DNA of 64,000 nt from contig CAZYDJ010000001.1 of assembly GCA_964646035.1 (NCBI GenBank), positions 7,346 through 71,345 on the forward strand, given 5' to 3'. Within the stretch, counting starts at the first letter, position 1, and the number at the start of each line of letters is the position of its first letter. The notes below the pieces were generated by a model. That model was not told where the DNA came from and did no database searches. It saw only the letters and a program-made list of their open reading frames with translations. This stretch comes from an uncultured Fibrobacteraceae bacterium (GTDB lineage: Bacteria > Krumholzibacteriota > Krumholzibacteriia > LZORAL124-64-63). Of this stretch, positions 14,001 through 34,309 are shown one piece after another. The translations under genes were made by a program, and so were the position numbers.

Positions 14001-17000
14001 CCATATCCTCAGATAGATGTTCTCGGCGCGGGTGTAGCTCTGCTCGAAATCGAGAACGCCGTGCTCGAGTCGCTGCAGGATAGTTCCGACCGCGCCCACG
14101 GCCTGCACGCCTGTCTCGTCATAGATCTCGATGTTGAACAGGCGGCCGTCGTCGATCACCGTTCGCGTTTCACGGTCGCGCAGCGAAACGGAAACCGGGA
14201 ACGTGGCCGGGGGCCCCACCCGGGGAGCGGGGTCGGTCTGGACGGTTACGATGTACTCGACTCCGTTGTCGAGCATGGTGATCGGCGTGGAATAGCCCTT
14301 CCGCCCGGAGATGTCGGAAACCTCGATCACGATCGGCTCGACGGTGTCATAGGCCTGTGCCGGGACCGCAAGCTGTCCGTCGGCCAGATGACCGTCTGTA
14401 ACCAGCAGGGTCCCGTCGGCGGGCTGCAGGTCGGTGCCGAGAGCGCGGATCGTGACGTCGGTCTGGGCGGTATCGATGATGTTGCCGTCGCCGTCGACCA
14501 GATGGACGGACATCGCGAAAGTGCTCGGCGGCCCGACCTGGGCGTTGCCGGGCACGCTGATGACGTACTGGGCCCCTTCCTCCACTAGGAAGATCACTGA
14601 CTGGTCCGCGATTGCCGGATCATCCTCGTTCGAAGCGGTGACCGTCACGTAGCCAACCGAAGTCAATGAGATCGGGAAGATGATGTCGCCGTCGACCAGG
14701 GGATTGCCGTTGTTCAGGGGATTGGTGTCGTTGAGCGACGCATCATCGCTGACCAATCGGATCACGCCGCCGTCATGGGAGACGGGATTCCAGAACCGAT
14801 CGACCGCCTGGACGGTCACCGGGAACTGGAGGGCCGCGATGCGGGGATCGGGAAGGCCGATCTTGCCGTCTGCCTCGTAGCCGCCGGGCAGAGGGGTCTC
14901 GCCGGGGGCCACGATCTGCAACTGGATGAATTCGCCCGGGTCCACCTGCACCCGGCTCGAGTCGGCGCGCTCCGGAGAGGCGAGATCGAAGGCCGTCAGA
15001 GTGCGCAGGCCGGCGGTGCGGAAGTAGAGATCGAAATCGCCGGTCCCGTCCGCCGCCAGGGGCGAGTTGTTCAGGGAAACCATCTCGAAGAATTCATCGC
15101 ATTGGATACGGACGATCGGTTCGGCCGCAACCGGGTTCCAGAAAGCGTCCACTGCCTGGATGTGGGCCGTGACGGTGTCGCCGGCGGCCACCGGCAAGGG
15201 CACGCCGATCTTACCGGGAGCCTCTCCCGGGCTCGCCGTTTCGCCGTCGAGCAGGACCTGCAGATTCTCGTAGGGACCGGCGAAGACCGTGAAGTCGTTG
15301 CTCGATCCGGTGCGTCCGTAGACGTCCTCGCGGGCTTCGAGATGAACGTCGACGCCGACCCGGGTGATCTGGATCTGGTTGCGCCACACGCCCACGAACG
15401 AACCCGAGCCGAAGCCGTCGGACATGTCGATCCTGACCGGGGTCATGATGTCGGCGCCGTGGCTGACCGAGAGGGAGATCTCATCGGTGTAATTGGTGAT
15501 GTGGTTGCCGAAGAAGTCGCGGGCGATGACCGTCACGTTGGGCAGCCAGGAACCCGCCTGATGATCCGGAACCGGCTGCAGGATGTCGCCCGGGTCGGGA
15601 TTGGTCTGGTTGTTGATGCCGATGTCGAAATGGTCGATCACGCCGGGGGAAACCGGGATGATCGCGGTGCCGGCGGCGCCGCTGACCGAATCCGTCGCCT
15701 GCACGGTCTGCTCGTTGGGCTCGGCCAGGGTCTGCAGCGTGGCCGGGAACAGGGCCGTAGGCGTGAGCAGGGTCTGCGGCGATGCCGGCAGGACGGCCGC
15801 CGCGTCGGTGCTGCTGAAGTCCAGCGTGCGGGGCAAGGAGGGCGAAGAGGTCGCGATCGGGTTCCAATAGGCGTCGGCGGCGATGACCGTGACGTTGAAC
15901 GGAACTCCCGCATCCTGGGAAGTGGGGGTGCCGATCTTGCCGTCGCTCTCGATCGAATCGAAAATACCCGGCTCGAGCTGTTCGCCCGGAGCCTCGACCA
16001 CGATCCGCTTGTAGACGTTGGGAATGACCGGCACGGAGCTCGACAGGCTGGTGCCGATGCCGCCGATATCACCCTGCAGCACCTGGCCGCCGTGGGTCCT
16101 GAAGATGACCCGGATATCGGTGGGGCTGCTCAACACCATCATGTTGTCGGAATACTCCGGCAACAGCATATAACCGGTGGGGCAGCTTAGCGTCACGGTC
16201 CGCGATCCGGAAACCAGGTTCCCGTAGCGGTCGACGGGACGCAGCGTGACCGGCTCGATCACGTTGCCCGCCACCAGGCCGTTGGGCACGCCCAGATTGC
16301 CGCTGAAAGCCGGGTCGTTGAGACCCGGCAGCCAGGTCTCGCCCGGGTAGGTGAAGAGGATGCGGTCCAGGGGCCCCGCATTCACCTGGAAACCGCCGGA
16401 TACCCCGACAACTCCGCCGTTGCTGTCGATGATCAGGTTGGCGCTGAAAGCCCGCTTGGTGACCTGGGCGTGCGCATCCAGGACGCCGTTGACGAACGTC
16501 GCCGTATCGGTGATCAGGAAATCGGCGCTCTCGTCGGTCTCGCCGATCTTGACGCGCATCGAAACCGCGCCGTTGAACGGAAACAGGTTGTCGTTGATAT
16601 CCATGGCCCTGACCCGGACCAGGAACGGAATCGTAGTCACCTGGGCCACCGTCGTATCCCAGACGGCGTAATCGAAGACGAAGTGGTCCAGGCCCTGGGG
16701 GTTCACTTCGACCCAGCTCTCGCTGAAGGAGCCGCCGGTGCCGGTGGCCGCCACCTCTATCCTCGTGGTTCCGGACTGGATCAGGGTCATGTCCAGGTCC
16801 TGCTCGACGCTGCTGGTCATGTCCAGATCGAAGGGAAGGACCACGCCCGCGCTGGGGTCGTTGCAGGTCCATGTCAGATGGGGATAGGGACCCACCTCAA
16901 TCGGATTCCAGTATTCGTCGGTGGCGTAGACGTCCACGCCGTTGAAAACCGCGCCCGAGATCTGCGCCAGGGGCGTGCCGGCCTTGCCTGGATACACTCC

Positions 17001-17789
17001 GGGGGTCAGGATCTCGCCCGGAAGCAGAAGCACGATGGTGGCGAGGTTGCCGGGATGCAGCGGCGTCACCAGGACCTGGCCGGAAGCCGGGAAGGCCTGG
17101 CCGGGATAGATGACGCTGCCGGTGGCGCTGAGGTTGTTGTCGCGGGTCACGGGATCGGTGCCGAGCAGGGTCACCGAAGTGGTCAGTGTTCCGAAGCTGA
17201 AGGAGGCCCCGGGCAGAGTGATTGTCGGGCCGGAGTCGAAGTTGCCGATGGCCGCCTGCAGCAACACGTTGTCGGCGAAGTTACGCACCGCGTTTCCCAG
17301 GGCGTCCTCGGCCGTGATAGTGATGGAGATGGACTGGCCCACGTATTTGTCGCCGGCGGGCACATTGATGACGATGTGGTCCACGGGGTTGTAGCAGTTC
17401 ATCAGGATCTCGGCCACGGGCACCGAGGGATCGTCATAGTCGCCGACCTGCAGACGAAGCGGCTGTCCGGGCGCCAGGAAAGTGATGTCGTCGAATTGAC
17501 GCTCGCCGTTCTGGAGATACGCCCGCGCAGGCAAGGTGGTCGGAACGTCCGGTGACCGGAGGTCGGCGTTGATGAAGTCGGCCGCGGTGTCGGTCGTGCC
17601 GTCGGCGTTGACCGCCCGCACCCTGACGCTGAAACCAGCGCCGGATGTCGCCGCCGGATAGCCGTCGACGATGTTCGGATCGGTGACCGTGAGTTCGAGA
17701 TGATCGAAAGCGGCCGCCAATCCCGGCAAGGCCGAAAGAATGACGGTGGCCATGATGATCCGGAATATCAGTGCAGTCTTGATTCGCAT
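11019..17789 (-). CDS. giant (2256 aa) secreted repeat adhesin-like protein with tandem Ig-like domains and a T9SS (Por) C-terminal sorting domain
   Basis: The signal peptide MRIKTALIFRIIMATVILSALPGLAAA starts from the ATG at 17787-17789. The body is made of two families of beta-sandwich repeats (..VGPPSTF..D..G.. and ..PG..DGK.G.P....F.VTV.AVD.YWNPV) arranged as higher-order super-repeats. The C-terminus NPFRAGDESTLILFNP...IIYDLYGASV...FTWNGCDGDGDIVANGGYICRI matches the T9SS type-A CTD. Confidence 0.8.
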   Translation of the reverse strand: MRIKTALIFRIIMATVILSALPGLAAAFDHLELTVTDPNIVDGYPAATSGAGFSVRVRAVNADGTTDTAADFINADLRSPDVPTTLPARAYLQNGERQFDDITFLAPGQPLRLQVGDYDDPSVPVAEILMNCYNPVDHIVINVPAGDKYVGQSISITITAEDALGNAVRNFADNVLLQAAIGNFDSGPTITLPGASFSFGTLTTSVTLLGTDPVTRDNNLSATGSVIYPGQAFPASGQVLVTPLHPGNLATIVLLLPGEILTPGVYPGKAGTPLAQISGAVFNGVDVYATDEYWNPIEVGPYPHLTWTCNDPSAGVVLPFDLDMTSSVEQDLDMTLIQSGTTRIEVAATGTGGSFSESWVEVNPQGLDHFVFDYAVWDTTVAQVTTIPFLVRVRAMDINDNLFPFNGAVSMRVKIGETDESADFLITDTATFVNGVLDAHAQVTKRAFSANLIIDSNGGVVGVSGGFQVNAGPLDRILFTYPGETWLPGLNDPAFSGNLGVPNGLVAGNVIEPVTLRPVDRYGNLVSGSRTVTLSCPTGYMLLPEYSDNMMVLSSPTDIRVIFRTHGGQVLQGDIGGIGTSLSSSVPVIPNVYKRIVVEAPGEQLEPGIFDSIESDGKIGTPTSQDAGVPFNVTVIAADAYWNPIATSSPSLPRTLDFSSTDAAAVLPASPQTLLTPTALFPATLQTLAEPNEQTVQATDSVSGAAGTAIIPVSPGVIDHFDIGINNQTNPDPGDILQPVPDHQAGSWLPNVTVIARDFFGNHITNYTDEISLSVSHGADIMTPVRIDMSDGFGSGSFVGVWRNQIQITRVGVDVHLEAREDVYGRTGSSNDFTVFAGPYENLQVLLDGETASPGEAPGKIGVPLPVAAGDTVTAHIQAVDAFWNPVAAEPIVRIQCDEFFEMVSLNNSPLAADGTGDFDLYFRTAGLRTLTAFDLASPERADSSRVQVDPGEFIQLQIVAPGETPLPGGYEADGKIGLPDPRIAALQFPVTVQAVDRFWNPVSHDGGVIRLVSDDASLNDTNPLNNGNPLVDGDIIFPISLTSVGYVTVTASNEDDPAIADQSVIFLVEEGAQYVISVPGNAQVGPPSTFAMSVHLVDGDGNIIDTAQTDVTIRALGTDLQPADGTLLVTDGHLADGQLAVPAQAYDTVEPIVIEVSDISGRKGYSTPITMLDNGVEYIVTVQTDPAPRVGPPATFPVSVSLRDRETRTVIDDGRLFNIEIYDETGVQAVGAVGTILQRLEHGVLDFEQSYTRAENIYLRIWDDTGLVGYSPLFSVDHDGYKHLQILAPGETAHPGDPAYSLTGKDGDPDSQRPGEPFPIDVYAVDQYWNVADTTAVGTVHLEASDGSFAIVGNPDVNDQSFINGARTFSSFLTQAGPVSVTASDLDDPARTPQTTTVTLVDPYYYEIDVPAAASTGPIPGFAMTIRLMDPLTGFPMPSAFNHFTLEPLRADLSAGTGSLGVTSGALVNGVAVINNQSYSALENLVVRMVDDYGRQIVSDVIDMQTGGLYYAVSIPENATVGGPSTFPLEVELMDSNTGERVTTQGGMLDIEILSAVTGMPVTGNYGIHQQTYNSGYCLIEQSYTLAEEIFIRVSDIDGVVGVSNTCRMLPDGFKQVLVLAPGETAVPGSIDTAGKTGEPLPQHVGVAFPLTVQAVDQYYNRLTTLNSGSIDVTCSVAGWLMLSDPAAAGAAFINGSRTIDVILAGTGQVSIYAADADAPDAIGGVVDVQVRDVTYAIDLPDPAIVITGPPSTFQLGLRLIDTQDGTPIPAGGDFTISALKPNWSAATAELGVAGGSLVAGVAVIDHQTYGISEQIVIRAVDAYGREGYSGVLTVVPASVEYDISVPDTVIAGATWPMTIGRVDGDTGELVTSADVAFTVTVFHAWTGDIRPDISLSPAGTLAYQMGSTEGGIASFAYQSYDRAEVIYLRVEDSEGGSSISSQITVLPGAANSFVVSLQDGDGGAFSGVMRPNDVVTVIAEVDDAAGNAIPGLDIDFEVLEGDGTVGPAGQPEILVVTSADGHAVVSLRADYDATEDILLQVSCLGMAPELRELLVAGPPATEISYEGVASDYEDGKYITFDTRITLTPQTEAPDGIRAVFMDIDGSDGTLPTTAYSGPFSLAELIPADTGLHVLRFFAEEVSGVREVVQSVNLYTTAALGVGKPITNRPNPFRAGDESTLILFNPPADGPAKMIIYDLYGASVLTMSIDARAGVTNQFTWNGCDGDGDIVANGGYICRITGTGYDIRRKIAVVK

Positions 17790-18250
17790 GACAATCCTGC
17801 CGCTGCTGGGTGGAAAAAACGTCTTCCAATGGGTTGGGTCATGCAGAATGCACGGCGGCGGCGCCCTGGAGCCCATTCCGGGAGACCCGAGACGGGAAGC
17901 CAGCAAGTGATATGCCATGGAAAACAATGGCTTATGCTTCCCAATGATGCCCTTTGATTCCTGTTTAAAACCCGATCCCCCGACACGCCCGCAGAAGCGT
18001 CGGGTAACGGGCGGAAACTCCAGGGCATAGATGGAGATTGCAGGACGCTACAGGGCGCGACAGGACGCGATGACCCTGCCCGGGGCACTCTCGACGACGA
18101 CGGGGAATTCCACTCCAGCGACCGGTTGGGAATAATTCCCCGGCCCGTTTCCGGCGGACGAATAAATGGGATTGTGGGGCGGGCGAACGAGGATTATCGT
18201 TCCCGTCAGAAAACCGAGCGATACGCGATCCTCGAAGGAGAAATTCCAGC

Positions 18251-19045
18251 ATGAGCGCATTGACCGCTAGCAAGGCCGACAAGCATTGGCTCTATGAGAA
18301 CTCGGTCCAGAATCCCGAGGCCGAAGTCCAGTTCATCGACCGCGTATTCCGGTCCGAATTCAAGCGCCGGCCCTCCTTCCTGCGCGAGGATTTCTGCGGC
18401 ACCGCCAACCTGAGCAGTTGTTGGGTTTCCCTCCGCAAAGGGAACACCGCGCTGGGGGTCGACAACCATCTGCCGACGCTGAACTGGGGCCGCCGCCATA
18501 ATCTGGCCCCTCTCGGAGACCGCGCGGCTTCCGTGGAACTGGTCCACGCCGATGTCCGCGCAGTAACCGCGCCGAAAGCCGATGTTCTCGCCGCGACCAA
18601 CTTCTCCTGGTGGGGATTCCACACCCGCCCGGAACTGCTGGAATATTTCAACGTCTGTCACGAATCCCTCAAGGACGAGGGCATGCTGATGCTGGACATC
18701 TACGGCGGCCCCGAGGCCCAGGTGCTCCAGTTCGAGGAACGGGAATGTGAAGGGTTCACCTACGTCTGGGATCAGGACGTCTTCAACCCGATCACACACG
18801 AATACCGCTGCCGGATCCATTTCCAGTTCCCCGACGGCAGCGAGATGAAAAACGCGTTCCGCTATCATTGGCGCTTGTGGTCCATCCCGGAAGCCTGCGA
18901 GATCCTGGCCGAGGCCGGTTTCCGCAAGTCGGTCGTATACTGGGAGGGCGCGGACAAGAAGGGTAATCCCAACGGAATATTCCGTCACAGCGTGCGTGGC
19001 GATCAATCACCGGCTTGGATCGCCTACATAGTTGCTTTTCGCTGA
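18251..19045 (+). CDS. class I SAM-dependent methyltransferase (hypothetical)
   Basis: A 264-aa ORF with a GAAGGAGA RBS. A motif-I-like segment (LREDFCGTANLS) is followed by an acidic loop. Confidence 0.55.
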   Translation: MSALTASKADKHWLYENSVQNPEAEVQFIDRVFRSEFKRRPSFLREDFCGTANLSSCWVSLRKGNTALGVDNHLPTLNWGRRHNLAPLGDRAASVELVHADVRAVTAPKADVLAATNFSWWGFHTRPELLEYFNVCHESLKDEGMLMLDIYGGPEAQVLQFEERECEGFTYVWDQDVFNPITHEYRCRIHFQFPDGSEMKNAFRYHWRLWSIPEACEILAEAGFRKSVVYWEGADKKGNPNGIFRHSVRGDQSPAWIAYIVAFR

Positions 19046-19090
19046 TTCAAGGCTGCCCATTTCAGCCTGCCGATCGGGAGGATCGTGACC

Positions 19091-19354
19091 ATGGACATGA
19101 GTGTATGCTCTCTTTGCGGCTCGGATTTGGACGAGACGCCCATCATTTACCAGGGAATGGCGTTCTGCTCGGAAGACTGTCGGGATGACTGGCGCCGTGA
19201 CCTTGACGACGAGGATGATTTCGAGATCGGGGAAACCGGCGCAGAGGAGGATTCTTTGGACGATCTCCTGCTGGATAACGACGATCTGGAAGTTGATCTG
19301 GACGACGATGTCGACGATACCTTGTCCGCGGACCTGGCCGACGACCTCTATTGA
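19091..19354 (+). CDS. small Cys4 zinc-ribbon / TRASH-like protein with a poly-acidic C-terminal tail
   Basis: A GGGAGGA RBS sits 10 nt before the ATG at 19091. The protein has a CSLCGSD...x16...CSEDC motif (C-x2-C-x16-C-x3-C). The C-terminal half is about 50% Asp/Glu. The six-frame ORF begins at a GTG at 19085, which lies too close to the RBS. Confidence 0.5.
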   Translation: MDMSVCSLCGSDLDETPIIYQGMAFCSEDCRDDWRRDLDDEDDFEIGETGAEEDSLDDLLLDNDDLEVDLDDDVDDTLSADLADDLY

Positions 19355-19381
19355 ATCCGGTCGCCTAAGCCATCAACAAGA

Positions 19382-19409
19382 AACGAGGAGAGCCTCAGCT
19401 CCCCTCGTT
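19382..19409. terminator. bidirectional intrinsic terminator hairpin between the convergent genes 19091..19354(+) and 19440..19799(-)
   Basis: The inverted repeat is AACGAGGAGAGC-CTCA-GCTCCCCTCGTT, with one A/C mismatch. It is flanked by AAA on the + side and TTT-rich sequence on the - side. Confidence 0.55.
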
Positions 19410-19439
19410 TGATCCGATCAGCTGTTCGCGTCGGTGCGA

Positions 19440-19799
19440 TCAGTTGCAGTCGCAACTCCCGCAGCCGCCTTCGCCGCACTCGCCGGCGTTGCCGATCTGA
19501 ACCGTATATCCCTTGCGGAAACCGTCATCGACGAAGTCGATCGACACTCCACCGCCCTGGGTGACCATGGATTCCACTTCGGGCTCCATGATGAACGTCC
19601 AGTCCTGGAGCTTGAATTCCCGATCCTGTTCCTTGGGCTCGTCCAGAGCCATGCCCACAGAGGGCCCGCCTCAGCCAAAACCCTGGAAATATACCCTGAT
19701 CGTCTGCGGTCCTTCCTTGGCGGAGATGTCCAGATCACCGAGAGCCTGGGCCGCCGCAGGAGAGATCCTGATCAAATCGGTTTGATTCACTTCCACCAT
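19440..19799 (-). CDS. HesB/IscA-like (A-type Fe-S cluster carrier family) selenoprotein; in-frame TGA = Sec at 19671-19673
   Basis: The annotated 72-aa ORF (19440..19658) matches only the C-terminal two-thirds of IscA: IDFVDDGFRKGYTV...ECGEGGCGSC versus E. coli LDFVKEGLNEGFKFTNPN..ECGCGESF. Translating the same frame upstream through one TGA gives MVEVNQTDLIRISPAAAQALGDLDISAKEGPQTIRVYFQGFG-U-GGPSVGMALDEP. This aligns to the IscA N-terminus (...[24 protein letters not shown]). The TGA falls exactly on the conserved Cys of the GCSG motif. A stem-loop GGCUC-UGGAC-GAGCC with a GG in the apical loop begins about 20 nt after the UGA, at SECIS-like spacing. The full gene is 119 codons. Confidence 0.7.
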
Positions 19800-19902
19800 C
19801 CCGTGACGTGAGAGACCGTGTTTTGTTGACTTCTCCAACAATAATCAAGCGATGTCGAATCTGCAAACCTTCTAATACTAAATCGGCCTATTCGGTCTTG
19901 TA

Positions 19903-22900
19903 TCATGCCTTCCCCGGTCCTTCGTTGTTCGAGGTCAATCCCAGCAACCGCTTGGCGTCCTCCATCAGCAGATATCCCACCGGAACCAGAACCAAGGTGA
20001 TCACGGTCGCGAAAAGAACACCGAACCCCAGGCTGATGGCCATCGGGATCAGGAAACGCGCCTGCAGGCTTTTCTCCAGCAGCATCGGCGTCAAGCCGGC
20101 GAAAGTCGTCAGGGAGGTCAGGACAATGGGTCGGAAACGGCGGACTCCGCTGGCCAGCACGGCCTCGTTCAACCCCATGCCTTCGGCGCGGCACCTGTTG
20201 ATGAAATCGATCATGATCAACGAGTCGTTCACCACGACTCCGGTCAGCGCTACGACTCCGAACATGCTCAACAAAGTCAGATCCCATCCCATCAGCACGT
20301 GGCCGAGGACGGCGCCGACGAATCCGAAAGGAATCGCGGACATGATGATCACCGGCTGGGCGTAGGATCGGAAAAGCACCGCCAACAGGGCATAGATGGC
20401 CAGCAGGGCCACCAGGAATCCCTGGCGCATGCTTTCGAGGGACTCCGCGCGATCCCGCTCTTCCCCCTCGAAAGAGACCCTCAGGCCCGGGAACTCGGCC
20501 AGCAGATCAGGCAATGCCTGCTTCTGCATATCGGCCAGCACCTCGCCCGCGTTGGTGACGTTCTGGTCCACATCCGCCTCGACATTGACGATGCGGCGAC
20601 GGTCGACCCTGTCGACGGAGGCGTAGCCGCGGCCGGTCTCGACAATCGCGACCCGGCGAAACGGTATCTCGGTCCCGGCCGGAGTCCGGATCATCATATT
20701 CTCCAGATCCCCGACAGAACGACGTTCTCCACGCGGATAGCGGACCATGACCCTGACATCGTCGCGTCCGCGCTGGATGCGCATCGCCTCGTCGCCATAG
20801 AATCCCTGCCTCACCTGGCGGGCCATGTCCTGCAGGGTGAGGCCCAAAGTCCTGGCCTCGGGCAACAGTGAAAGCTTCAGCTCGACCTTGCCCTCTTCAT
20901 AGCTGTCCCTGATGTCCTGCACTCCGGGATACTCTTCGAGGATCTCCTCGAGCCTGGCGGCCGCTGCGGTCAGCCGGCCGGAATCCTCGCTCGACAACTG
21001 CAGCTGCAGCGCCGCGCTGCCGTGAAAGAGATTCGAGGTGAACGTCACCGATTTCGCCCCGGTCAGCGGCCCGGTCAGTTCACGCCAGCGGGTGACCAGT
21101 TCGTTGCTCGATATGCTGCGTTTCTCGCCGGCAAGCAATTCGACGTTGATCTCCGCCTTGTGCGATCCGAGGAATGTCGTCTCGGCGGCGGTTCCCGGCC
21201 GATTGGCCCCGCCGCCTCGCGGCTGGAAGCCGATTGTCGATAGGACATGGCGGATGATGGGCTCTTCCGCGTCGTCGCGACCGCCATCGACATCCGACCG
21301 CAGTTCTTCCAGCGCCGCCTCGATCCGGCCCACCACCTTGTCGGTCTGGGCGAGGGTCGTCCCGGCGGGCATGTCGATCACGCAGAGCATGTTGTCGGAA
21401 TCGATCTTGGGCATGAACGTGAAGCGGATATGACCGCCCCCGACGAAACCCGCCAACAGCAGGATGATCGCCACCGCCGCCGCCAGCACGACTCCGCGGT
21501 GATGAGCGGCGTATTCGAGCGTCGGCCGGTAGGAGCGGTCGATAAAGAACTTGAAGCTGCGGCTGAAGCGTCCCTGCAGACCGCCGATGCTCCACCGGCT
21601 GCGTTCATCCTTCGAATCGTCGAGGTGCAGAGCGGACCTGGGGATGGTCGAAAGGTGGGCGGGGAGGATGAACAGGGCCTCCACCAGCGACACCACGAGA
21701 ACGGCGATCACCACCACGGGGACCTGCCCCATGAACTTGCCCATCATCCCTTCGACCTGCGAAAGCGGAAAGAAGGCGAAGATGGTGGTCAGAATGGCGA
21801 TGATCACCGGGGCGGCCACCTCCCGGGTTCCGATCACGCTGGCCCGCAGCCCGGTCTCGCCCTTCTCGCGATGAGTGAAGATGTTCTCGCCCACCACTAT
21901 CGCGTCGTCGACCACCAGTCCCAGAACGATGATCAGCGCGAACATCGAAATCATGTTCAGGGAGGCTCCGAAACCGGGAATTATCCAGAAGCCGCCGAGG
22001 AAGGAAATGGGAATGCCCAGGGCGACCCAGAACGCCAGCCGCGGCTGGAGGAAAAGGGATAGGCAGAAGAACACCAGCACCAGTCCGATCGCTCCGTTCT
22101 TGAGCATCAGGTTCATCCGGCCCCGGTAGATGTCGGAACGATCCGCCCAAACGCCTATTTCCACACCTTCGGGCATCGAATCGCTCTTGTTCCGGACGTA
22201 CTCGTGCACCGAGTCGGTGACCTCGAGTATTCCCTGCTCGGAAACGCGGTAGACCGACACCACCGATGCCGGACTGCCGTCGAACCACGTGCGCGTATCG
22301 ACATCCTGGAAATCGTCGCGGATGTCGGCGACCTCGCCCAGGGTCAGCCGCGTACCGTCGGGGCGGGTCAGGACGGCGATCCCGGCGAATTCATCGCCGC
22401 TGTAGCGCTGGCCCTTGGTTCGAACCAGGATTTCGCCGGCGTCGGTCTTGACGCTGCCGCCGGGCATATCGAGGCTGCCGCGACGAACCGCGTCGGTCAC
22501 CGCGTCGAAAGAGAGTCCGTAACGGCGCAGCGAATCCTCGCCGATCTCGATCGAGATCTCGTAGGGGCGGGTGCCGACGAGCTGGGCCTGGGTCACCACG
22601 CCGTCCGCGAGCAGATCGTCGCGAACCCGGTCGGCAAGCACCTTCAGCGTCTTTTCGTCCGCGTCGCCGTGGATGACGATGTCGATTGCCTGCTCGGAAG
22701 ACTCCATCAGGTTGATGACCGGTCTCTCGGTCTCCTCGGGGAAAGTGATGATCTGGTCGACGGCCTGTTTGATGTCGTCGAGGACCTTTTCGGCGTCGGC
22801 GTCGGTGTTGATCTCGGCCATCACCATTCCGGACCCCTCGACCGACAGGGAGGTGATCCGCTTGATGCCGTCGATGCTCTCGATGGCCTCCTCGACCCGG

Positions 22901-23097
22901 ATGCAGACCGATTCCTCTACTTCCTCGGGGCTGGCCCCGAGGTAGACGATGCTGACCGAGACCATGTCCAGATCGATCTCGGGGAAAAGCTCCTGCTTGA
23001 TCGTGAGCGCCGAGATGATCCCGGCCAGAACCAGGAAGATCATCAGGAGATTCGCTGCCACATGGTTGTCGGCGAACCAGTCGATCAATCCCTTCAC
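19903..23097 (-). CDS. RND family efflux transporter, inner-membrane permease (AcrB/HAE1-like)
   Basis: A 1064-aa ORF with 12 TM segments and two large periplasmic loops, typical of AcrB-like pumps. It has the LIDWFADNHV N-terminus and duplicated halves. Confidence 0.92.
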   Translation of the reverse strand: MKGLIDWFADNHVAANLLMIFLVLAGIISALTIKQELFPEIDLDMVSVSIVYLGASPEEVEESVCIRVEEAIESIDGIKRITSLSVEGSGMVMAEINTDADAEKVLDDIKQAVDQIITFPEETERPVINLMESSEQAIDIVIHGDADEKTLKVLADRVRDDLLADGVVTQAQLVGTRPYEISIEIGEDSLRRYGLSFDAVTDAVRRGSLDMPGGSVKTDAGEILVRTKGQRYSGDEFAGIAVLTRPDGTRLTLGEVADIRDDFQDVDTRTWFDGSPASVVSVYRVSEQGILEVTDSVHEYVRNKSDSMPEGVEIGVWADRSDIYRGRMNLMLKNGAIGLVLVFFCLSLFLQPRLAFWVALGIPISFLGGFWIIPGFGASLNMISMFALIIVLGLVVDDAIVVGENIFTHREKGETGLRASVIGTREVAAPVIIAILTTIFAFFPLSQVEGMMGKFMGQVPVVVIAVLVVSLVEALFILPAHLSTIPRSALHLDDSKDERSRWSIGGLQGRFSRSFKFFIDRSYRPTLEYAAHHRGVVLAAAVAIILLLAGFVGGGHIRFTFMPKIDSDNMLCVIDMPAGTTLAQTDKVVGRIEAALEELRSDVDGGRDDAEEPIIRHVLSTIGFQPRGGGANRPGTAAETTFLGSHKAEINVELLAGEKRSISSNELVTRWRELTGPLTGAKSVTFTSNLFHGSAALQLQLSSEDSGRLTAAAARLEEILEEYPGVQDIRDSYEEGKVELKLSLLPEARTLGLTLQDMARQVRQGFYGDEAMRIQRGRDDVRVMVRYPRGERRSVGDLENMMIRTPAGTEIPFRRVAIVETGRGYASVDRVDRRRIVNVEADVDQNVTNAGEVLADMQKQALPDLLAEFPGLRVSFEGEERDRAESLESMRQGFLVALLAIYALLAVLFRSYAQPVIIMSAIPFGFVGAVLGHVLMGWDLTLLSMFGVVALTGVVVNDSLIMIDFINRCRAEGMGLNEAVLASGVRRFRPIVLTSLTTFAGLTPMLLEKSLQARFLIPMAISLGFGVLFATVITLVLVPVGYLLMEDAKRLLGLTSNNEGPGKA

Positions 23098-24260
23098 TGA
23101 TTCCCACCTCCGGCGACCCGCACCTTCATCCCCTCGGTCACGACGTCCAACTGCGAGACGACGACTCTTTCACCGGGCTCGATATCGCTGAGGATCAGCG
23201 CCTCTTCGCGGTCCATCCGCACGATATCGACAGCCTGGATGCGGAGCAGATCCTGATCGTCGACGGTCCAGACCGTCCCGTCCGGGCGCAGCCCGGAACG
23301 CGGTATGCCTCTCGCTCCGGGAACGGTGCGCCCCTCGATCGCCGCGGATACGAACATCCCGTCCAGAAGCCGGGCGCCGGCCGCCGCCTCGCCCTCGCCG
23401 TCGACAGCTATGATCACGTCGACCATGCGGGAGCGTTCGTCCAGGACGCCGCCGACGCGGACGATCCTCCCCGACCAGCGTCGCTCGCTGCCGGCGAAGT
23501 CCGTCGAGATCTCGACCCGGGCGCCCGGCCCGTCTCCGGGCAGGTCGAAGAACGCCAGATCCGCATCGGAAAGCGGCACGGTCACCTCGGCCGTTTCGGC
23601 GGCGTAGATCGAAGCCAGCTCGGAACCGGCGCGGACGTACTGTCCGACATCCACCGATTCTTGCACTACGCGACCGGCGAAAGGAGCCGTGATGGTGCAG
23701 CGTTCGAGGTCGAGCCTGGCCTTGGCCAATCCGGCCCCGGCGGAAGCCAGATCGGCTCGCGCGAGGTGGAGTTGCGGCTCGTGCCTGACCAGAGAGTTCG
23801 GCTCCGGAAGCGGTTTGGCGGCGCCTTCCTTCACCTGGATCCACTCGCGCAGGGCGATTTCCGCCTCCTGCTCCGCCCGCGCCATTTCGTATTCTCCGCG
23901 AGCGACCTGGGCCGCCGCCATTTCCACGGCCAGCTCATAGTCCGCGGTATCGATCCGCAACAGGGTATCGCCGGCCGCGAACGATCCGCCGGAGGCCAAT
24001 GCGGGAGACTTGCCGAGCACCACTCCGGAAACCTGGGGCACGATCGAGATCCGTTCGCGGGCCGCGACATTGCCGTAACCGGTCACCACTACCCGGGGCG
24101 TCTCGTCGGTGACCGTGAAGATTTCGACCACCGGCAGCACTGGCGAGGCCGGACGCTTGGGAGGGCTCGGCCGCAGCGCGATCATGGCCACTGCTCCGAT
24201 CAGGCCGACAGCGACAATGGCCAGCGGCAGCACTCCCCGGGGCAAACTCATTCGGCTCAT
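23094..24260 (-). CDS. RND efflux periplasmic adaptor / membrane fusion protein (HlyD/AcrA family)
   Basis: A 388-aa ORF with an N-terminal TM/signal anchor, a coiled-coil region, and lipoyl/beta-barrel-like segments. It forms an ATGA overlap with the RND pump gene. Confidence 0.85.
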   Translation of the reverse strand: MSRMSLPRGVLPLAIVAVGLIGAVAMIALRPSPPKRPASPVLPVVEIFTVTDETPRVVVTGYGNVAARERISIVPQVSGVVLGKSPALASGGSFAAGDTLLRIDTADYELAVEMAAAQVARGEYEMARAEQEAEIALREWIQVKEGAAKPLPEPNSLVRHEPQLHLARADLASAGAGLAKARLDLERCTITAPFAGRVVQESVDVGQYVRAGSELASIYAAETAEVTVPLSDADLAFFDLPGDGPGARVEISTDFAGSERRWSGRIVRVGGVLDERSRMVDVIIAVDGEGEAAAGARLLDGMFVSAAIEGRTVPGARGIPRSGLRPDGTVWTVDDQDLLRIQAVDIVRMDREEALILSDIEPGERVVVSQLDVVTEGMKVRVAGGGNQ

Positions 24261-24275
24261 CAGCCAGCTCCTAGA

Positions 24276-25766
24276 TCAGTTGCGCGGCGCATCCGCGACA
24301 TCGGTTCTTGTTCCCGCGGCGGAATCCTGATCCGGCCGCACATCCCACGGACCGCCCAGGGCCTGGATCAGGTCCACCCGCACTCTTCTGACCAGCCCCT
24401 CGGCCCGCAAAAGTTCACTTTCCGCCAGATGCAACTGACGCCGCGCATCCAGTACTGTCAGATAGGGATCCAGGCCTTGCCGGTATCGATCCCGGGCAAC
24501 GTCCAGCGACCGCTCGGCGTGGCCGACGCTTTCGCGCAGGAAGCCGCGGCGAATGTCCTGGAGCCGGCCCGCGGTCAGGGCAGCCTCGACATCCCGGAAT
24601 CCGTTGAGCAGCACTCCGGCATAGGCGGCCCGCGCCTGCTCGGCCCTTCCTTCGGCCGCGTCGACTTGGGCGGTGCGGGCGCCGCGGTTCAGCAACGGCA
24701 TGGTCAGATTACCGACCAGACTCCATACCGAGGCTCCGTCGGTGATCAGATTATCCAGTTCGGGCGATGAATATCCTGCGTTTCCGGTCAGTGACAGGCG
24801 CGGGAAAAGATCGGCCTTCGCGGCGCCGATCCTTTCGCCGGCCGCCCGCAACGACATCTCGGCGGCGACAACGTCGGGACGACGCCCGAGCAGATTCGCC
24901 GGCAGACCGGCCGGGACCGGCTTCAATTCGGGCAACTGGGCCAGCGCCTCCCCCTCGGCGGCGATCCGGCCCGCGGGATACCTGCCCACGAGAATCTCCA
25001 ACGCCCTTCTGGCCACAGCCAGATCCTCTTCCCACTGCACCCTGCGGGCCCGGGCCGACGCCAGCGCCTGCCGGGACTGATGCACATCCAGCGAAGCCGA
25101 GACGCCTCCGGCATATCGATCCTCGACCATATCCAGGCTGGACGCCCAGCTCTCTTCGGTGCGAACACTCAGGTCCCTCTGACCTTCCGCCTCGCTCACC
25201 ATCAGCCAAGCCCGCACCACATCCGCCGCCAGTCCCTGCCTGACCGCGATCCTGTTCGCCTCGACGGCCATCAGATCCGCCCAGCCGGCGCGACGCGTGC
25301 GGGAGAGACGACCCCAGAGATCGAGTTCCCAGGACGCATTCGCCGAGGCGTCGTAAAGAGTGCTGTAGATCGAGCCGCGCCCACCGAAACGGGCCATCGT
25401 GAGCTTGCTCCGACTGGCGCTACCCCCGATCTCGACCGAAGGCAGGCTGTTCGACCCGGCGGCCTTCAACTGCGCGCGGGCCTCGGTCACCCTGCCCGCC
25501 GCGGCCATCAGATCGGGGCTCGCCGCGAAAGCTTCCTCGACCAGCGAATCCAGGCGGGCGGAGCCGAAATCACGCCACCATCCGTAGGCCGGATCATCGC
25601 CGACAACGCTATCGGCGGCATGATCGGCAACGTATCCGCCCGGCACCGGCACGTCCGCGGGACGCACGTAATCCGGACCCACCGCACATCCCGCCGCGGC
25701 GATCAGCGCGGCCAGCGCGACCGGCGCGACGACGCCTCCGATCACCGTTTTCAGGCTGAGGTTCAA
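24276..25766 (-). CDS. efflux outer-membrane factor lipoprotein (TolC/NodT family)
   Basis: A 496-aa ORF with lipobox LIAAAGC and two tandem TolC-like coiled-coil/barrel repeats. Confidence 0.85.
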   Translation of the reverse strand: MNLSLKTVIGGVVAPVALAALIAAAGCAVGPDYVRPADVPVPGGYVADHAADSVVGDDPAYGWWRDFGSARLDSLVEEAFAASPDLMAAAGRVTEARAQLKAAGSNSLPSVEIGGSASRSKLTMARFGGRGSIYSTLYDASANASWELDLWGRLSRTRRAGWADLMAVEANRIAVRQGLAADVVRAWLMVSEAEGQRDLSVRTEESWASSLDMVEDRYAGGVSASLDVHQSRQALASARARRVQWEEDLAVARRALEILVGRYPAGRIAAEGEALAQLPELKPVPAGLPANLLGRRPDVVAAEMSLRAAGERIGAAKADLFPRLSLTGNAGYSSPELDNLITDGASVWSLVGNLTMPLLNRGARTAQVDAAEGRAEQARAAYAGVLLNGFRDVEAALTAGRLQDIRRGFLRESVGHAERSLDVARDRYRQGLDPYLTVLDARRQLHLAESELLRAEGLVRRVRVDLIQALGGPWDVRPDQDSAAGTRTDVADAPRN

Positions 25767-26443
25767 GATCCTACCCCTTGTTCCGTCTCGCCGGCGAATG
25801 CCTCGGCTCCGGTTGCGCTGAGCCGCGAGACGTGATCGACAACCATTTCGATGAATTCCTCGTGATCATCGGGGAAGATGCCGGCTGAAATCGCGTCCAC
25901 GTCCACGCCCAGGCCCGTCCGCCGCGCATACCAGCGCATCATGAAGAAGAGCAGTTGTCCGATGGCGCTCATCACGATCCAGCCCATGCGCCTGGGCAGG
26001 ATGTCGGGCCGGGCTTCGGCCAGGATCTCCATCATGATCCGCTGGACCGGTTGGATCAATTCGGCCTGCAGAATACCTGACGCGTGCCCCTGGGTATGGG
26101 CTTCGCGTGCGAAAAGCCGCAGCGAGGTCTCCCAATGCGAGGGGTCGAGGGTGTCGCGGATGTGGGCGTCGATCACGGCGCGGATAATCGCTTCGAGATC
26201 GGGCGTTTCGCTGCGGGCGCGCAGTTCCTCCAGCGAAGAAATGATGCGGTCGCGCTTGGGCGCCATTCTGCGCCGGATGACCTCCTCGTAGAGGCCTTCC
26301 TTGCCCCGGAAGTGATAGTTGACGGCGGCCAGATTGGCCTCCGCCTCGCCGGCGATTTCACGAACGGATACTCCGTCCAGTCCTCTTTCGGCGAAGAGCC
26401 TTTCGCCGACATCGAGCAACCGTTCCCGTGTCGATTCCTTCAT
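25763..26443 (-). CDS. TetR/AcrR family transcriptional regulator
   Basis: It has an N-terminal HTH (RERLLDVGERLFAERGLDGVSVREIAGEAEANLAAVNYHFRGKEGL). Its stop overlaps the outer-membrane-factor start (ATGA). The start is assigned to MKESTRE; the ORF track starts 10 codons earlier. Confidence 0.8.
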   Translation of the reverse strand: MKESTRERLLDVGERLFAERGLDGVSVREIAGEAEANLAAVNYHFRGKEGLYEEVIRRRMAPKRDRIISSLEELRARSETPDLEAIIRAVIDAHIRDTLDPSHWETSLRLFAREAHTQGHASGILQAELIQPVQRIMMEILAEARPDILPRRMGWIVMSAIGQLLFFMMRWYARRTGLGVDVDAISAGIFPDDHEEFIEMVVDHVSRLSATGAEAFAGETEQGVGS

Positions 26444-26482
26444 CTGGAACATCCCCCGCGGCCTGAGAATCACATCAATATA

Positions 26483-31548: not shown

Positions 31549-31554
31549 AGCCGC

Positions 31555-31635
31555 ATATCCGTTAGGGGTGGTCGCAAGACCTGAGAGATACCCTTGGAAC
31601 CTGAACCGGGTCATTCCGGCGTAGGGAAACGTGAT
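31555..31635 (+). promoter_or_regulatory. TPP (thiamine pyrophosphate) riboswitch, THI element
   Basis: The sequence is cgttaGGGGTGgtcgcaagaCCTGAGAgatACCCttgGAACCTGAaCcGGgTcATtCCgGCGTAGGGAAacg. It matches the conserved THI-box cores (GGGGUG, CUGAGA, ACCC..GAACCUGAUC.GG.UAAU.CC.GCGUAGGGAA). The expression platform contains the hairpin AGGGGCCGG-N9-CCGGCCCCT and an AGGAGG SD before the ATG at 31730. Confidence 0.85.
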
Positions 31636-31729
31636 GAGAACCACGCGACCCACACGTGCCGGCTTCCTGGGAGGGGCCGGTTTTCTGATGCCGGCCCCTG
31701 TAAGACCGTCCTTACAGGAGGCTCTCGTA

Positions 31730-34309
31730 ATGCTGTCCCAGTCCTTTCTCCGGCGAAGCCGCACCGGTGGATTCGTCGCTCCCCTGTTGATCCTGCCGAG
31801 CGCCCTGCTGCTGATCCTGTTGACGAGTTACGCCGCCTTCAGCGCCGAAACCGGGGAAAGCACGGTCCTGCTCGGGCGCGTGGCCGACGCCGCCAGCGGC
31901 GCGCCGCTGGCCAACGCCAACGTTTCGGTCCAGGGCTCGACCGCGGGCACCATGACCACGAACGACGGCTGGTTCTCCCTGCGCGGAGCGCCGGACAGAC
32001 CCTATACCCTGGTCGTCTCCTTCATCGGATACGAAACGTTGCTGCTGGCCGTGGATCCCGCCTCGATCGCGCCGGGCGAGTTCCTGGAGCTGGCTCTCCA
32101 GCCCACCGTCTACGCGACGGAACAGATCGTCGTGACGGCTTCTCGCTACGGATCGGACCTGCACCTCAGCCAGACGAACATCCCCCGCGAGGAACTGCAG
32201 AGAAGAATCGCCGACACCGATATCCCGCTGCTGCTCGAGGACACGCCCGGGCTGTACGCCAGCAGTGATGCGGGCAACGGCATCGGCTACACGTACCTGA
32301 AGATCCGCGGCTTCGACCAGCGGCGCGTCGGCGTGATGGTCAACGGCATCCCCCTGAACGATCCCGAGGACCACCAGGTCTACTGGGTTGATCTGCCCGA
32401 CCTCGCATCCTCGCTCGAGGACGTCCAGGTGCAGCGCGGGGTCACCAACTCCCTGGGCGGGATGACAGCCATCGGCGGAACAGTCAACCTGGTGACCGAC
32501 ATCCTCTCGGTGGAGCCCCGGGCCAGGGCCGCCGCCTACGCCGGAAGCTACGGCACGGCCAAGCAGTCGCTGCTCTACAACACCGGGCTGGTCAACGACC
32601 GGTTCAGTTCGGCGATGCGCATCAGCCATCTCGAGAGCGACGGCTACCGCGACCGGTCGGGCAGCGACCAGTGGGCCGTGTTCTGGAGCGGCCGCTACCA
32701 GACCCCGAACAGCGCCACCCAGATCAACATCTACACCGGACGCGAAAAGACCCTGCACGCCTGGGACGCGATCGACGAGGACACTCTCGAAAACGACCGC
32801 ACATACAATCCCGAAACCTACGCCAACGCCGTCGACGACTTTCGGCAGCCCCATTACGAGCTGCACCACCGCTGGAACGTGGGCGACAACCTCATGCTGA
32901 AGAACTCGGCCTTCGTCATCCACGGCGAGGGATTCTACGAGAACTTCAAGGATGACCGGCAGGCCGGCGATTTCGGTCTCGACCGCTCCGACTTCCTGGG
33001 TCTCGATCCCGAGGCCGAAGTCGATCTGGTGCGGCGCAAGTGGGTCCGCAAGGATCAGGTGGGTTGGGTGCCCCAGCTGATGATGGACCATTCCGGCGGC
33101 CGAACCGTGATCGGAGGCGACGTCTACACCTTCCACAGCAATCATTGGGGAGATGTGATCTCGGTCGAGGGCTTCACCCCCGACGACATGGTCGGAGGGC
33201 TGAAGTACCACGAGTACACCGGCGACAAGGTCGCGTGGTCGGCCTATGTGAACGAACGCTGGGAGGCCCTACCCGGATTCACCCTGATGGCCGACCTGCA
33301 GTTCCAGCATAAGCGCTACGAATTCATGCAGGAACCGGCGGGCAATTTCCAGGGCGATCTGCGCAACGCCTACACCGTCGATTATGACTTCTTCAATCCC
33401 AAGGGCGGCTTCTTCTGGGATCTGCCGCGCGATCTGCTCGGCGGCGACACGGGGCTCTACGGTCACGTCGGACAGACCCATCGCGAACCCGCCGACAGCG
33501 ATCTCTTCGACACCTGGGACGGCCCGGACGACCTGGGCGTCCAGCCGTTGTTCAGCCGTTCCGAGCCGGTGGACGAGAACGGCGACGGCAGCGTCGACTA
33601 CGTGCGGTGGTACGATCCGCAGGTGCGGCAGGAGAAGGTGCTTAACTGGGAAGGCGGATTCAGCTGGCGTACGCGGGCGGTGTCCCTGACCGTCAACGGC
33701 TATTGGATGGATTTCGAGGACGAAATCGTTCCCTACGGCGCAGTGGACGATGACGGCCTCGCCATCCGCGGCAACGCCGACAAGACCCTGCACCGGGGAA
33801 TCGAAATGGGGCTGGCGGCGCAGATCACGCCGGTCCACCGGCTGCGCCTGGCCGCGTCGAAGAGCTGGGACGAGTACGATCGGTTCAGCGTTTTCGAGGA
33901 TGTCTGGGACTGGGATACCGGGGAATACCTGGGAACCACCGAGACGGACTACTCCGGCAATCCCATCCCGCTGTTCCCGGACCACCTGCTGAGCGCGACC
34001 GTGGAATCGGATCTCGGCCCCCTGGACACCAGCGTTCGCCTGCGTCGAGTCGGCAGGCAGCATCTCGACAATACCGGTCGAGACAATCGGGTCATCGACG
34101 CCTACACTACCGTGGATCTGGGCCTGAGCGCCGATCTGGCCGCCCTGGGCGGCGAGTCGCTTTCCGGAGCGTTTTTCGATTTTCGCCTGCGCAACCTGTT
34201 TGATGTGGAGTACGAGACCAACGGATATTACGATCCTTGGGCTGGAGGGAACATGAGGATTCCCGCCGCCAAACGTAATTTCCTGGCTGGGATCAGGGCT
34301 GCTTTCTGA
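31730..34309 (+). CDS. TonB-dependent outer-membrane receptor (CarboxypepD_reg-like N-domain, plug, 22-strand barrel); predicted thiamine/TPP-precursor uptake
   Basis: The start was chosen at the ATG with an AGGAGG RBS (signal peptide MLSQSFLRRSRTGGFVAPLLILPSALLLILLTSYAAFSA). The ORF track begins 33 codons earlier, inside the riboswitch. A TonB-box-like region and plug motifs are present (IVVTASR, GIPLND). It lies directly downstream of the TPP riboswitch. Confidence 0.85.
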   Translation: MLSQSFLRRSRTGGFVAPLLILPSALLLILLTSYAAFSAETGESTVLLGRVADAASGAPLANANVSVQGSTAGTMTTNDGWFSLRGAPDRPYTLVVSFIGYETLLLAVDPASIAPGEFLELALQPTVYATEQIVVTASRYGSDLHLSQTNIPREELQRRIADTDIPLLLEDTPGLYASSDAGNGIGYTYLKIRGFDQRRVGVMVNGIPLNDPEDHQVYWVDLPDLASSLEDVQVQRGVTNSLGGMTAIGGTVNLVTDILSVEPRARAAAYAGSYGTAKQSLLYNTGLVNDRFSSAMRISHLESDGYRDRSGSDQWAVFWSGRYQTPNSATQINIYTGREKTLHAWDAIDEDTLENDRTYNPETYANAVDDFRQPHYELHHRWNVGDNLMLKNSAFVIHGEGFYENFKDDRQAGDFGLDRSDFLGLDPEAEVDLVRRKWVRKDQVGWVPQLMMDHSGGRTVIGGDVYTFHSNHWGDVISVEGFTPDDMVGGLKYHEYTGDKVAWSAYVNERWEALPGFTLMADLQFQHKRYEFMQEPAGNFQGDLRNAYTVDYDFFNPKGGFFWDLPRDLLGGDTGLYGHVGQTHREPADSDLFDTWDGPDDLGVQPLFSRSEPVDENGDGSVDYVRWYDPQVRQEKVLNWEGGFSWRTRAVSLTVNGYWMDFEDEIVPYGAVDDDGLAIRGNADKTLHRGIEMGLAAQITPVHRLRLAASKSWDEYDRFSVFEDVWDWDTGEYLGTTETDYSGNPIPLFPDHLLSATVESDLGPLDTSVRLRRVGRQHLDNTGRDNRVIDAYTTVDLGLSADLAALGGESLSGAFFDFRLRNLFDVEYETNGYYDPWAGGNMRIPAAKRNFLAGIRAAF

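Follow-up and report, generated by a model that had tools for sequence, protein, structure and literature searches.

The locus described here raises the question of whether an in-frame TGA in a small minus-strand gene terminates a protein or is read through as selenocysteine (Sec). The gene lies in a 64,000-nucleotide (nt) stretch of DNA from an uncultured Fibrobacteraceae bacterium (contig CAZYDJ010000001.1, positions 7,346 to 71,345), hereafter the window, whose source is a 73.9-kb metagenome scaffold. In our analysis, positions 19799..19440 of the minus strand are found to encode, with a probability of roughly 0.9, one cytoplasmic HesB-like selenoprotein of about 119 residues, from a family that branches off within the fold of the A-type Fe-S carriers (IscA/SufA/ErpA). 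The finding is a divergent member of a selenoprotein family that is already known, mis-annotated in a systematic way, and not a new kind of selenoprotein.

The open reading frame (ORF) listing of the minus strand contains a 72-residue fragment at 19440..19658, the only part given by the ORF track according to the first-pass annotation, and a 56-residue fragment at 19671..19841 which ends at the TGA. Both fragments lie in one frame. Translation of 19799..19440 reproduced the read-through frame of 119 codons proposed earlier, with the TGA at 19673..19671 (codon 43) as its sole internal stop. The resulting protein is MVEVNQTDLIRISPAAAQALGDLDISAKEGPQTIRVYFQGFG*GGPSVGMALDEPKEQDREFKLQDWTFIMEPEVESMVTQGGGVSIDFVDDGFRKGYTVQIGNAGECGEGGCGSCDCN*, where the first asterisk denotes the internal TGA of codon 43, and the terminal stop of the gene is TGA too (19442..19440). 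The peptide spanning residue 43 reads VYFQGFG-U-GGPSVGMALDEPK. The start codon is ambiguous between the ATG at 19799 and the GTG at 19796, because the orthologue at locus L008 carries Lys at the Met position.

The family of the protein was assigned with the read-through translation in which U was substituted by C, and this proxy was the query for both profile and PDB-sequence searches. The best NCBIfam match was the selenoprotein model NF038090 'IscA_HesB_Se' (E = 1.1e-17, 64.1 bits against a cutoff of 85), and TIGR01911 'HesB_rel_seleno' was also matched (E = 2e-10, 41.1 bits against a cutoff of 66.35). The generic A-type carrier models TIGR00049 (E = 3.8e-9), ErpA and IscA came after the selenoprotein models, all under their curated cutoffs. 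The HesB/IscA-like identity given in the first-pass annotation was thus borne out by the selenoprotein HesB models as best matches, but the match to PF01521, which it had proposed as a check, was marginal (E = 0.058) and stayed under the gathering threshold (14.1 against 26.3 bits). The NF038090 cutoff is passed by the Desulfobacterota members L046 (120 bits) and L060 (113 bits). The window protein and every tested member of its clade scored 55-71 bits with this model; this Fibrobacteres-Chlorobi-Bacteroidetes (FCB)-type clade comprises metagenome-assembled genomes (MAGs) labelled Krumholzibacteriia, Latescibacterota, Gemmatimonas and 'Fibrobacteraceae'. Judged by these profile scores, the window protein is a homologue beyond the trusted range of the curated models and of the same family, and the window copy belongs to the divergent FCB-type clade of HesB-like selenoproteins.

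Among the PDB sequences, the proxy matched AQ_1857 (1nwb), Thermosynechococcus elongatus IscA (1x0g) and HI1723 (2apn) with E values of about 1e-3. Residue 43 was aligned with the ligand Cys of all three structures, in agreement with the earlier placement of the TGA at the column of the first cluster-ligating Cys. The C-terminal tail was aligned with the C-terminal CGC region of IscA, HI1723 and AQ_1857, and in the orthologue alignment C113 (within GGCG) is invariant and C118 nearly invariant, with a variable spacing. The UxGP signature of the family is present as U-G-G-P in the window and as U-[G/S/K]-G-P in all the 83 Sec forms compared. The fold was judged on a predicted model of the full-length Cys-form homologue P0008, which was taken as a proxy (32% identical, predicted local distance difference test score (pLDDT) of 69). 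This model gave nine significant PDB matches, all of which are A-type carriers (IscA, SufA, HI1723, AQ_1857 and DsrR), and the Cys equivalent to residue 43 is located mid-domain, in a beta-turn between two central strands. A break at codon 43 would hence bisect a single A-type carrier domain.

The homologue set came from a scan of species-representative genomes (499 relatives), from which 80 loci were kept; together with earlier loci these provided 83 distinct TGA sequences. All 83 carry TGA at the codon-43 column and only two sequences, L073 and a paralogue in L067, carry Cys. The database homologues P0008 and P0009 also have Cys at this position, so the Cys which was expected in relatives at the TGA column is present in four cases. 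The hosts are MAGs labelled as uncultured Fibrobacteraceae, Gemmatimonas, Latescibacterota, Krumholzibacteriia, Zixiibacteriota, Ignavibacteria, Neomarinimicrobiota, Desulfobacterota/Syntrophobacterales and Myxococcota, and the motif YFQGFG-TGA-GGPxVGMALDEP is kept across the contigs of the closest database proteins. As a separate observation, the Myxococcota MAG contig CAXXHC010000003.1 (L067:10096-10960) carries two HesB-like genes, one of the Sec and one of the Cys form, as a tandem pair of like orientation with about 500 nt between them. By analogy with the selenoproteins of methanogens, this pair may represent Sec/Cys isoforms used according to selenium supply.

The hairpin GGCUC-UGGAC-GAGCC, which had been proposed as a candidate selenocysteine insertion sequence (SECIS), was confirmed. 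It has 5 base pairs and a free energy of -6.9 kcal/mol, it starts 20 nt past the UGA and the distance from the UGA to the loop is 25 nt. The essential mini-hairpin of E. coli fdhF starts about 11 nt after the UGA, and the fdhF-like spacing claimed earlier did not hold. The hairpin at 19650..19636 nevertheless fits the published general description of a bacterial SECIS, i.e. a stem-loop 3' of the UGA whose small apical loop includes a G (PMC1088965). Its 17-nt core ATGGCTCTGGAYGAGYC occurs in a single copy in the window (0.01 expected), and each HesB-Sec locus has exactly one copy of it, at a constant position within the gene.

The comparative analysis of the 83 Sec forms showed that this hairpin is under constraint at the RNA level. 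As the peptide GMALDEP is fixed, classical covariation is impossible and codon choice becomes the informative test. Codons +7 to +9 and +11 were found to be ATG GCT CTG ... GAG in 83/83 Sec forms, from genomes of 33-72% GC, against a background usage in the same genes of 14% GCT among Ala, 37% CTG among Leu and 44% GAG among Glu codons. The third base of the Ala codon must be U because it pairs with the A of GAG, and the third base of the Glu codon must be G because it pairs with the C of GCU, whereas the third base of the Leu codon (CTG) is the invariant G of the loop. Free variation was seen at the third bases of Gly+6, of Asp+10 (the last loop position) and of Pro+12 (just beyond the stem). 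In eight sequences Pro+12 is replaced by Ser (UCN), by which a G-C pair becomes G-U and the pairing is retained. With RNAalifold on 82 sequences, the hairpin was the only consensus structure, with 99.8% of the cells paired. The SECIS core AUGGCUCUGGAYGAG is nucleotide-identical in the two Desulfobacterota members which pass the NF038090 cutoff (L046 and L060). In case of the Cys forms, the Myxococcota paralogue in L067 is without the hairpin, and L073 (Syntrophus) retains the stem with the loop G changed; this recalls the SECIS-like 'fossil' that has been reported in a HesB-like gene of the Cys form (PMC1794560, Fig. 4 legend).

A second helix, NCCC/GGGN of codons +2 to +6, was also considered and rejected as a conserved element, since its outer pair is unpaired in 42/82 sequences and it is absent from the RNAalifold prediction. 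Pro+3 is CCC in 68/83 sequences and could formally pair with the GGG of codons +5/+6 (19650-19664 region), and in a CCA subclade CCAU could pair with AUGG instead. From these sequences, a weak second helix or an alternative structure may exist upstream of the SECIS.

Three other explanations of the locus were weighed. According to the first, which we regard as highly improbable, the UGA is read through but not as Sec, the code being reassigned (Trp or Gly) or a near-cognate Trp or Cys being inserted, and the hairpin is only a generic stimulator. In the database protein P0010 the Sec column is occupied by Trp (SIGWSGP...), which suggests that the TGA was translated as Trp by some pipeline, and the Sec machinery of the host is putative. 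A similar locus, L083:275-357, has TGA at this place, and the Trp of P0010 is probably the outcome of a wrong genetic code in that pipeline, i.e. a second type of mis-annotation for the family. Moreover, no other codon serves as often as TGA as an ordinary stop in the window, where it ends 16/29 long ORFs including the RND gene and the selenoprotein gene itself, and a reassigned code is thereby excluded. Those homologues which do not have TGA carry Cys at the column, giving the classic Sec/Cys pair, and the hairpin has the published SECIS features and is identical in the two members that score 120 and 113 bits with NF038090. Further, an archaeal member of the family has been labelled with 75Se (PMC11097638).

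Even less probable is a genuine stop at codon 43, in which case the locus would be a split or decaying pseudogene or two small ORFs with products of 42 and 70-72 residues. The public gene calls agree with such a split. The closest database proteins, P0001-P0007, are C-terminal fragments of 67-72 residues only, and their contigs match the arrangement in the window, with an ORF of 35-40 residues, a TGA and an ORF of about 70 residues; in L001, L004 and L006 an N-terminal ORF of 37-40 residues is called as a separate gene. The Sec machinery is also unseen in the available sequence. Against this, the TGA column is identical in 83 sequences of several phyla which are free of other stops or frameshifts, and the ratio of nonsynonymous to synonymous substitution rates (dN/dS) of the 33 codons 5' of the TGA is 0.05-0.48 in nine pairwise comparisons, similar to that of the 3' part. 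The upstream half is thus under purifying selection like the downstream half, which excludes an untranslated or decaying upstream part. The break would also fall within a single A-type carrier domain, exactly at the ligand Cys, and synonymous sites are frozen in the hairpin 20 nt downstream. The last alternative, equally hard to credit, holds that the invariance past the TGA reflects something else than a SECIS, for instance a codon preference in the conserved peptide GMALDEP or a DNA-level signal, and although GMALDEP is kept in Cys forms too and partly in IscA (DEP), and the stem never varies and has no compensatory double changes, it is opposed by the finding of GCU and GAG, the only Ala and Glu codons that the pairing permits, in all Sec forms despite the low usage of GCT, by the free variation of the sites flanking the stem and of the last loop position, by the G-U pair retained with Ser, and by the loss of the hairpin in the L067 Cys paralogue.

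The selenoprotein reading itself has several points against it. The stem is invariant, without double-sided covariation, and the hairpin has only 5 base pairs. When the candidate region was folded alone, as the first-pass annotation had advised, the local fold of 19610..19680 was no more stable than its shuffles (z = +1.17); folding of a single sequence is uninformative here, so the significance of the hairpin is comparative and not thermodynamic. No SECIS family was reported by Rfam in a gathering scan of the whole window or in a permissive scan of 19400..19850, where the only match was a chance microRNA hit (E = 0.86); Rfam offers no suitable model for this hairpin. The protein scores under the curated cutoffs of NF038090, TIGR01911 and PF01521, and the spacing of its C-terminal Cys residues is unlike the canonical C-G-C of IscA, as it mostly is in the orthologues. 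No tRNA-Sec was found by ARAGORN in the window and 60 related loci, and SelA, SelB and SelD (E. coli queries, tblastn) had no match in the window or in the related loci (about 1.4 Mb), while the RND pump used as positive control was detected. As the search was limited to the window and the fetched related loci and covered no whole genome, and as selA/B/C/D usually lie elsewhere in a genome, the missing machinery is uninformative. Nothing relevant on the Sec trait in Gemmatimonadetes, Latescibacteria, Fibrobacteres or Zixibacteria was found in the literature. A scan of the window for other TGA-interrupted frames, filtered by GC content at third codon positions, was set aside, as its 43 hits were mostly ordinary upstream stops and it missed the N-terminal half of the HesB gene.

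On the selenoprotein reading, codon 43 would be decoded by the established bacterial Sec mechanism. When the ribosome stands on the UGA, SelB-GTP with Sec-tRNA(Sec) would bind the G-containing apical loop 25 nt downstream and deliver Sec. Homology would place Sec43 at the position of the first cluster-ligating Cys of IscA, and Sec43 along with C113 and C116/C118 presumably forms a selenium-containing metal or Fe-S binding site or a redox-active site.

HesB-like proteins are a standard entry in prokaryotic selenoproteome tables (PMC1794560, PMC9312934, PMC13188914), with UxGP as signature motif and TIGR01911 as model (PMC13188914 Table 1; PMC9312934). The 2006 count (PMC1794560, Tables 1 and 3) listed eleven bacterial members and two Sec-to-Cys conversions, chiefly from Deltaproteobacteria and Clostridia. 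Mutagenesis and 75Se labelling confirmed a member in Methanococcus maripaludis, the only one for which selenium incorporation has been demonstrated; its function was described as 'not clear', and its disruption mutant had no nitrogen-fixation phenotype (PMC11097638). The family is hence better documented than the first-pass annotation had held. The window protein resembles these members in the UxGP signature, in the place of its Sec at the column of the first conserved Cys in the HesB/IscA domain, in a length of about 100-120 residues and in a C-terminal Cys-rich tail. On the other hand, its clade has a longer Gly/Cys tail (GxCGxGGCGSxxC) than the curated members and is often linked to a TetR-RND efflux operon. 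In comparison to IscA/SufA/ErpA (PF01521; PDB 1s98, 1x0g, 2d2a, 2apn), the sequence matches and the proxy model suggest the same fold, with a presumed three-ligand architecture in which one ligand would lie in a GCSG-like turn and two near the C-terminus, whereas the first ligand of the window protein would be Sec and not Cys. The hairpin is similar to the bacterial SECIS of E. coli fdhF and Moorella fdhA in being a stem-loop of the coding sequence just past the UGA with a small G-containing loop. Unlike the SelB-binding hairpins of fdhF and fdhA, only a 5-bp stem is conserved here and no bulged U is evident, and it is the sequence, and not just the structure, which is invariant across phyla.

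General knowledge of Sec biology is unchanged by this finding, and its value lies in annotation and in an example of codon choice imposed by a SECIS. All retrieved public copies of the clade's gene are fragments of 67-72 residues, unnamed or labelled 'IscA', and the source scaffold of the window (ENA ERZ23495388 (MUDA16-1) scaffold_93) likewise carries the gene as a fragment only. The curated NCBIfam selenoprotein models miss the FCB-type clade by 15-30 bits, and the position of this clade outside the trusted range fits the fragment-only public annotation. A lower model cutoff or the addition of clade sequences would recover the full-length selenoprotein in many uncultured FCB-group genomes, and the recovered annotations would mark these lineages as Sec users. 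The invariant 15-nt core is an unusually clean case of an overlapping RNA signal that leaves a coding sequence no freedom in its codons. Further, the family offers a simple DNA probe for its members, consisting of the TGA, 18 nt and ATGGCTCTGGAYGAG. The features of the locus are collected in Table 1.

Table 1. Features of the selenoprotein gene and its surroundings, in positions of the window.
Feature	Position	Strand	Remarks
Complete HesB-like selenoprotein gene	19440..19799	-	119 codons including Sec43; based on translation, NF038090/TIGR01911 matches and orthologous read-through frames in L001-L092
N-terminal 42 codons	19674..19799	-	overlooked by gene callers; 5' of the in-frame TGA; kept across orthologues
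UGA codon 43, predicted to be read as selenocysteine	19671..19673	-	motif G-U-G-G-P (UxGP); TGA in 83/83 Sec forms
Bacterial SECIS core hairpin	19636..19650	-	5' stem 19650..19646 GGCUC, loop 19645..19641 UGGAC, 3' stem 19640..19636 GAGCC
C-terminal Gly/Cys-rich tail	19446..19478	-	C108, C113, C116, C118; GECGEGGCGSCDC; presumed source of the other cluster ligands
Terminator-like 13-bp hairpin	19381..19410	-	30 nt past the stop, between the selenoprotein and zf-FLZ genes
TetR-OEP-MFP-RND efflux operon	19903..26473	-	generic multidrug type; NCBIfam/Pfam
TetR	25763..26473	-	
OEP	24276..25766	-	
MFP	23094..24260	-	
RND	19903..23097	-	

The RND gene ends 103 nt upstream of the ATG of the selenoprotein gene and is co-oriented with it, which agrees with the distance of about 100 nt noticed earlier. 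A scan of this intergenic gap found no promoter-like or terminator-like site. Because the 103-nt gap has no terminator, the selenoprotein gene is probably part of the transcript of the TetR-regulated RND operon, at its end. About 25 related loci share the RND-HesB order, and the identity of their RND proteins ranges from 72 down to 55%. Other clades have other neighbours, either a secreted FlgD-Ig protein with a type IX secretion system (T9SS) tail, or Ham1, a metallophosphoesterase and a Zn-ribbon protein, and the neighbourhood clustering showed no isc, suf, nif or other Fe-S biogenesis genes near the HesB-Sec gene in any clade. As the neighbours are clade-specific and without Fe-S biogenesis genes, the neighbourhood gives no family-wide functional clue. 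Much of the neighbouring block is simply syntenic, and the RND-selenoprotein linkage is suggestive at most.

A wider reading of the locus, which we regard as unlikely, joins two proposals. In the first, the selenoprotein of the FCB-type clade with the RND linkage would be a functional accessory of the pump and not a housekeeping Fe-S carrier; it could, for example, act in the cytoplasm as a sensor, chaperone or repair factor based on selenium, for an efflux substrate that reacts with thiols or metals. Separately, the gene and its SECIS could have spread horizontally as a unit, as the SECIS core is nucleotide-identical across Desulfobacterota, Myxococcota and FCB phyla.

The hairpin 30 nt past the selenoprotein stop corresponds to the bidirectional terminator which had been thought to be shared with the convergent gene; it is present, but it is terminator-like on the minus strand only. 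The convergence with a tiny Cys4 protein was upheld. This gene (19085..19354, plus strand) encodes 89 residues. Its product starts with a zf-FLZ C2-C2 zinc finger (Pfam E = 3.8e-6) in the N-terminal part and has a C-terminal tail that is extremely acidic and rich in Asp, Glu and Leu, and its orthologues in related contigs have 79-87 residues. Next to it, at 18251-19045 on the plus strand, lies a 264-residue protein without Pfam or NCBIfam match, for an orthologue of which a weak Methyltransf_12 match is recorded. It is the most widely conserved neighbour of HesB-Sec, being found in about 30 loci, RND-less clades included, and always on the opposite strand.

Two other features of the window were also recorded. 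A giant minus-strand ORF of about 2300 residues occupies 11019-17927 (the product in the source record has 2256 residues, with faint FlgD_ig matches); more FlgD-Ig-domain proteins lie near it, and related loci contain C-terminal sorting domains of the T9SS type. At 31554-31644 on the plus strand, a thiamine pyrophosphate (TPP) riboswitch (RF00059) was identified with 67.5 bits, over the gathering score; a long plus-strand ORF (31625..34309) follows directly, and its start is overlapped by the riboswitch.

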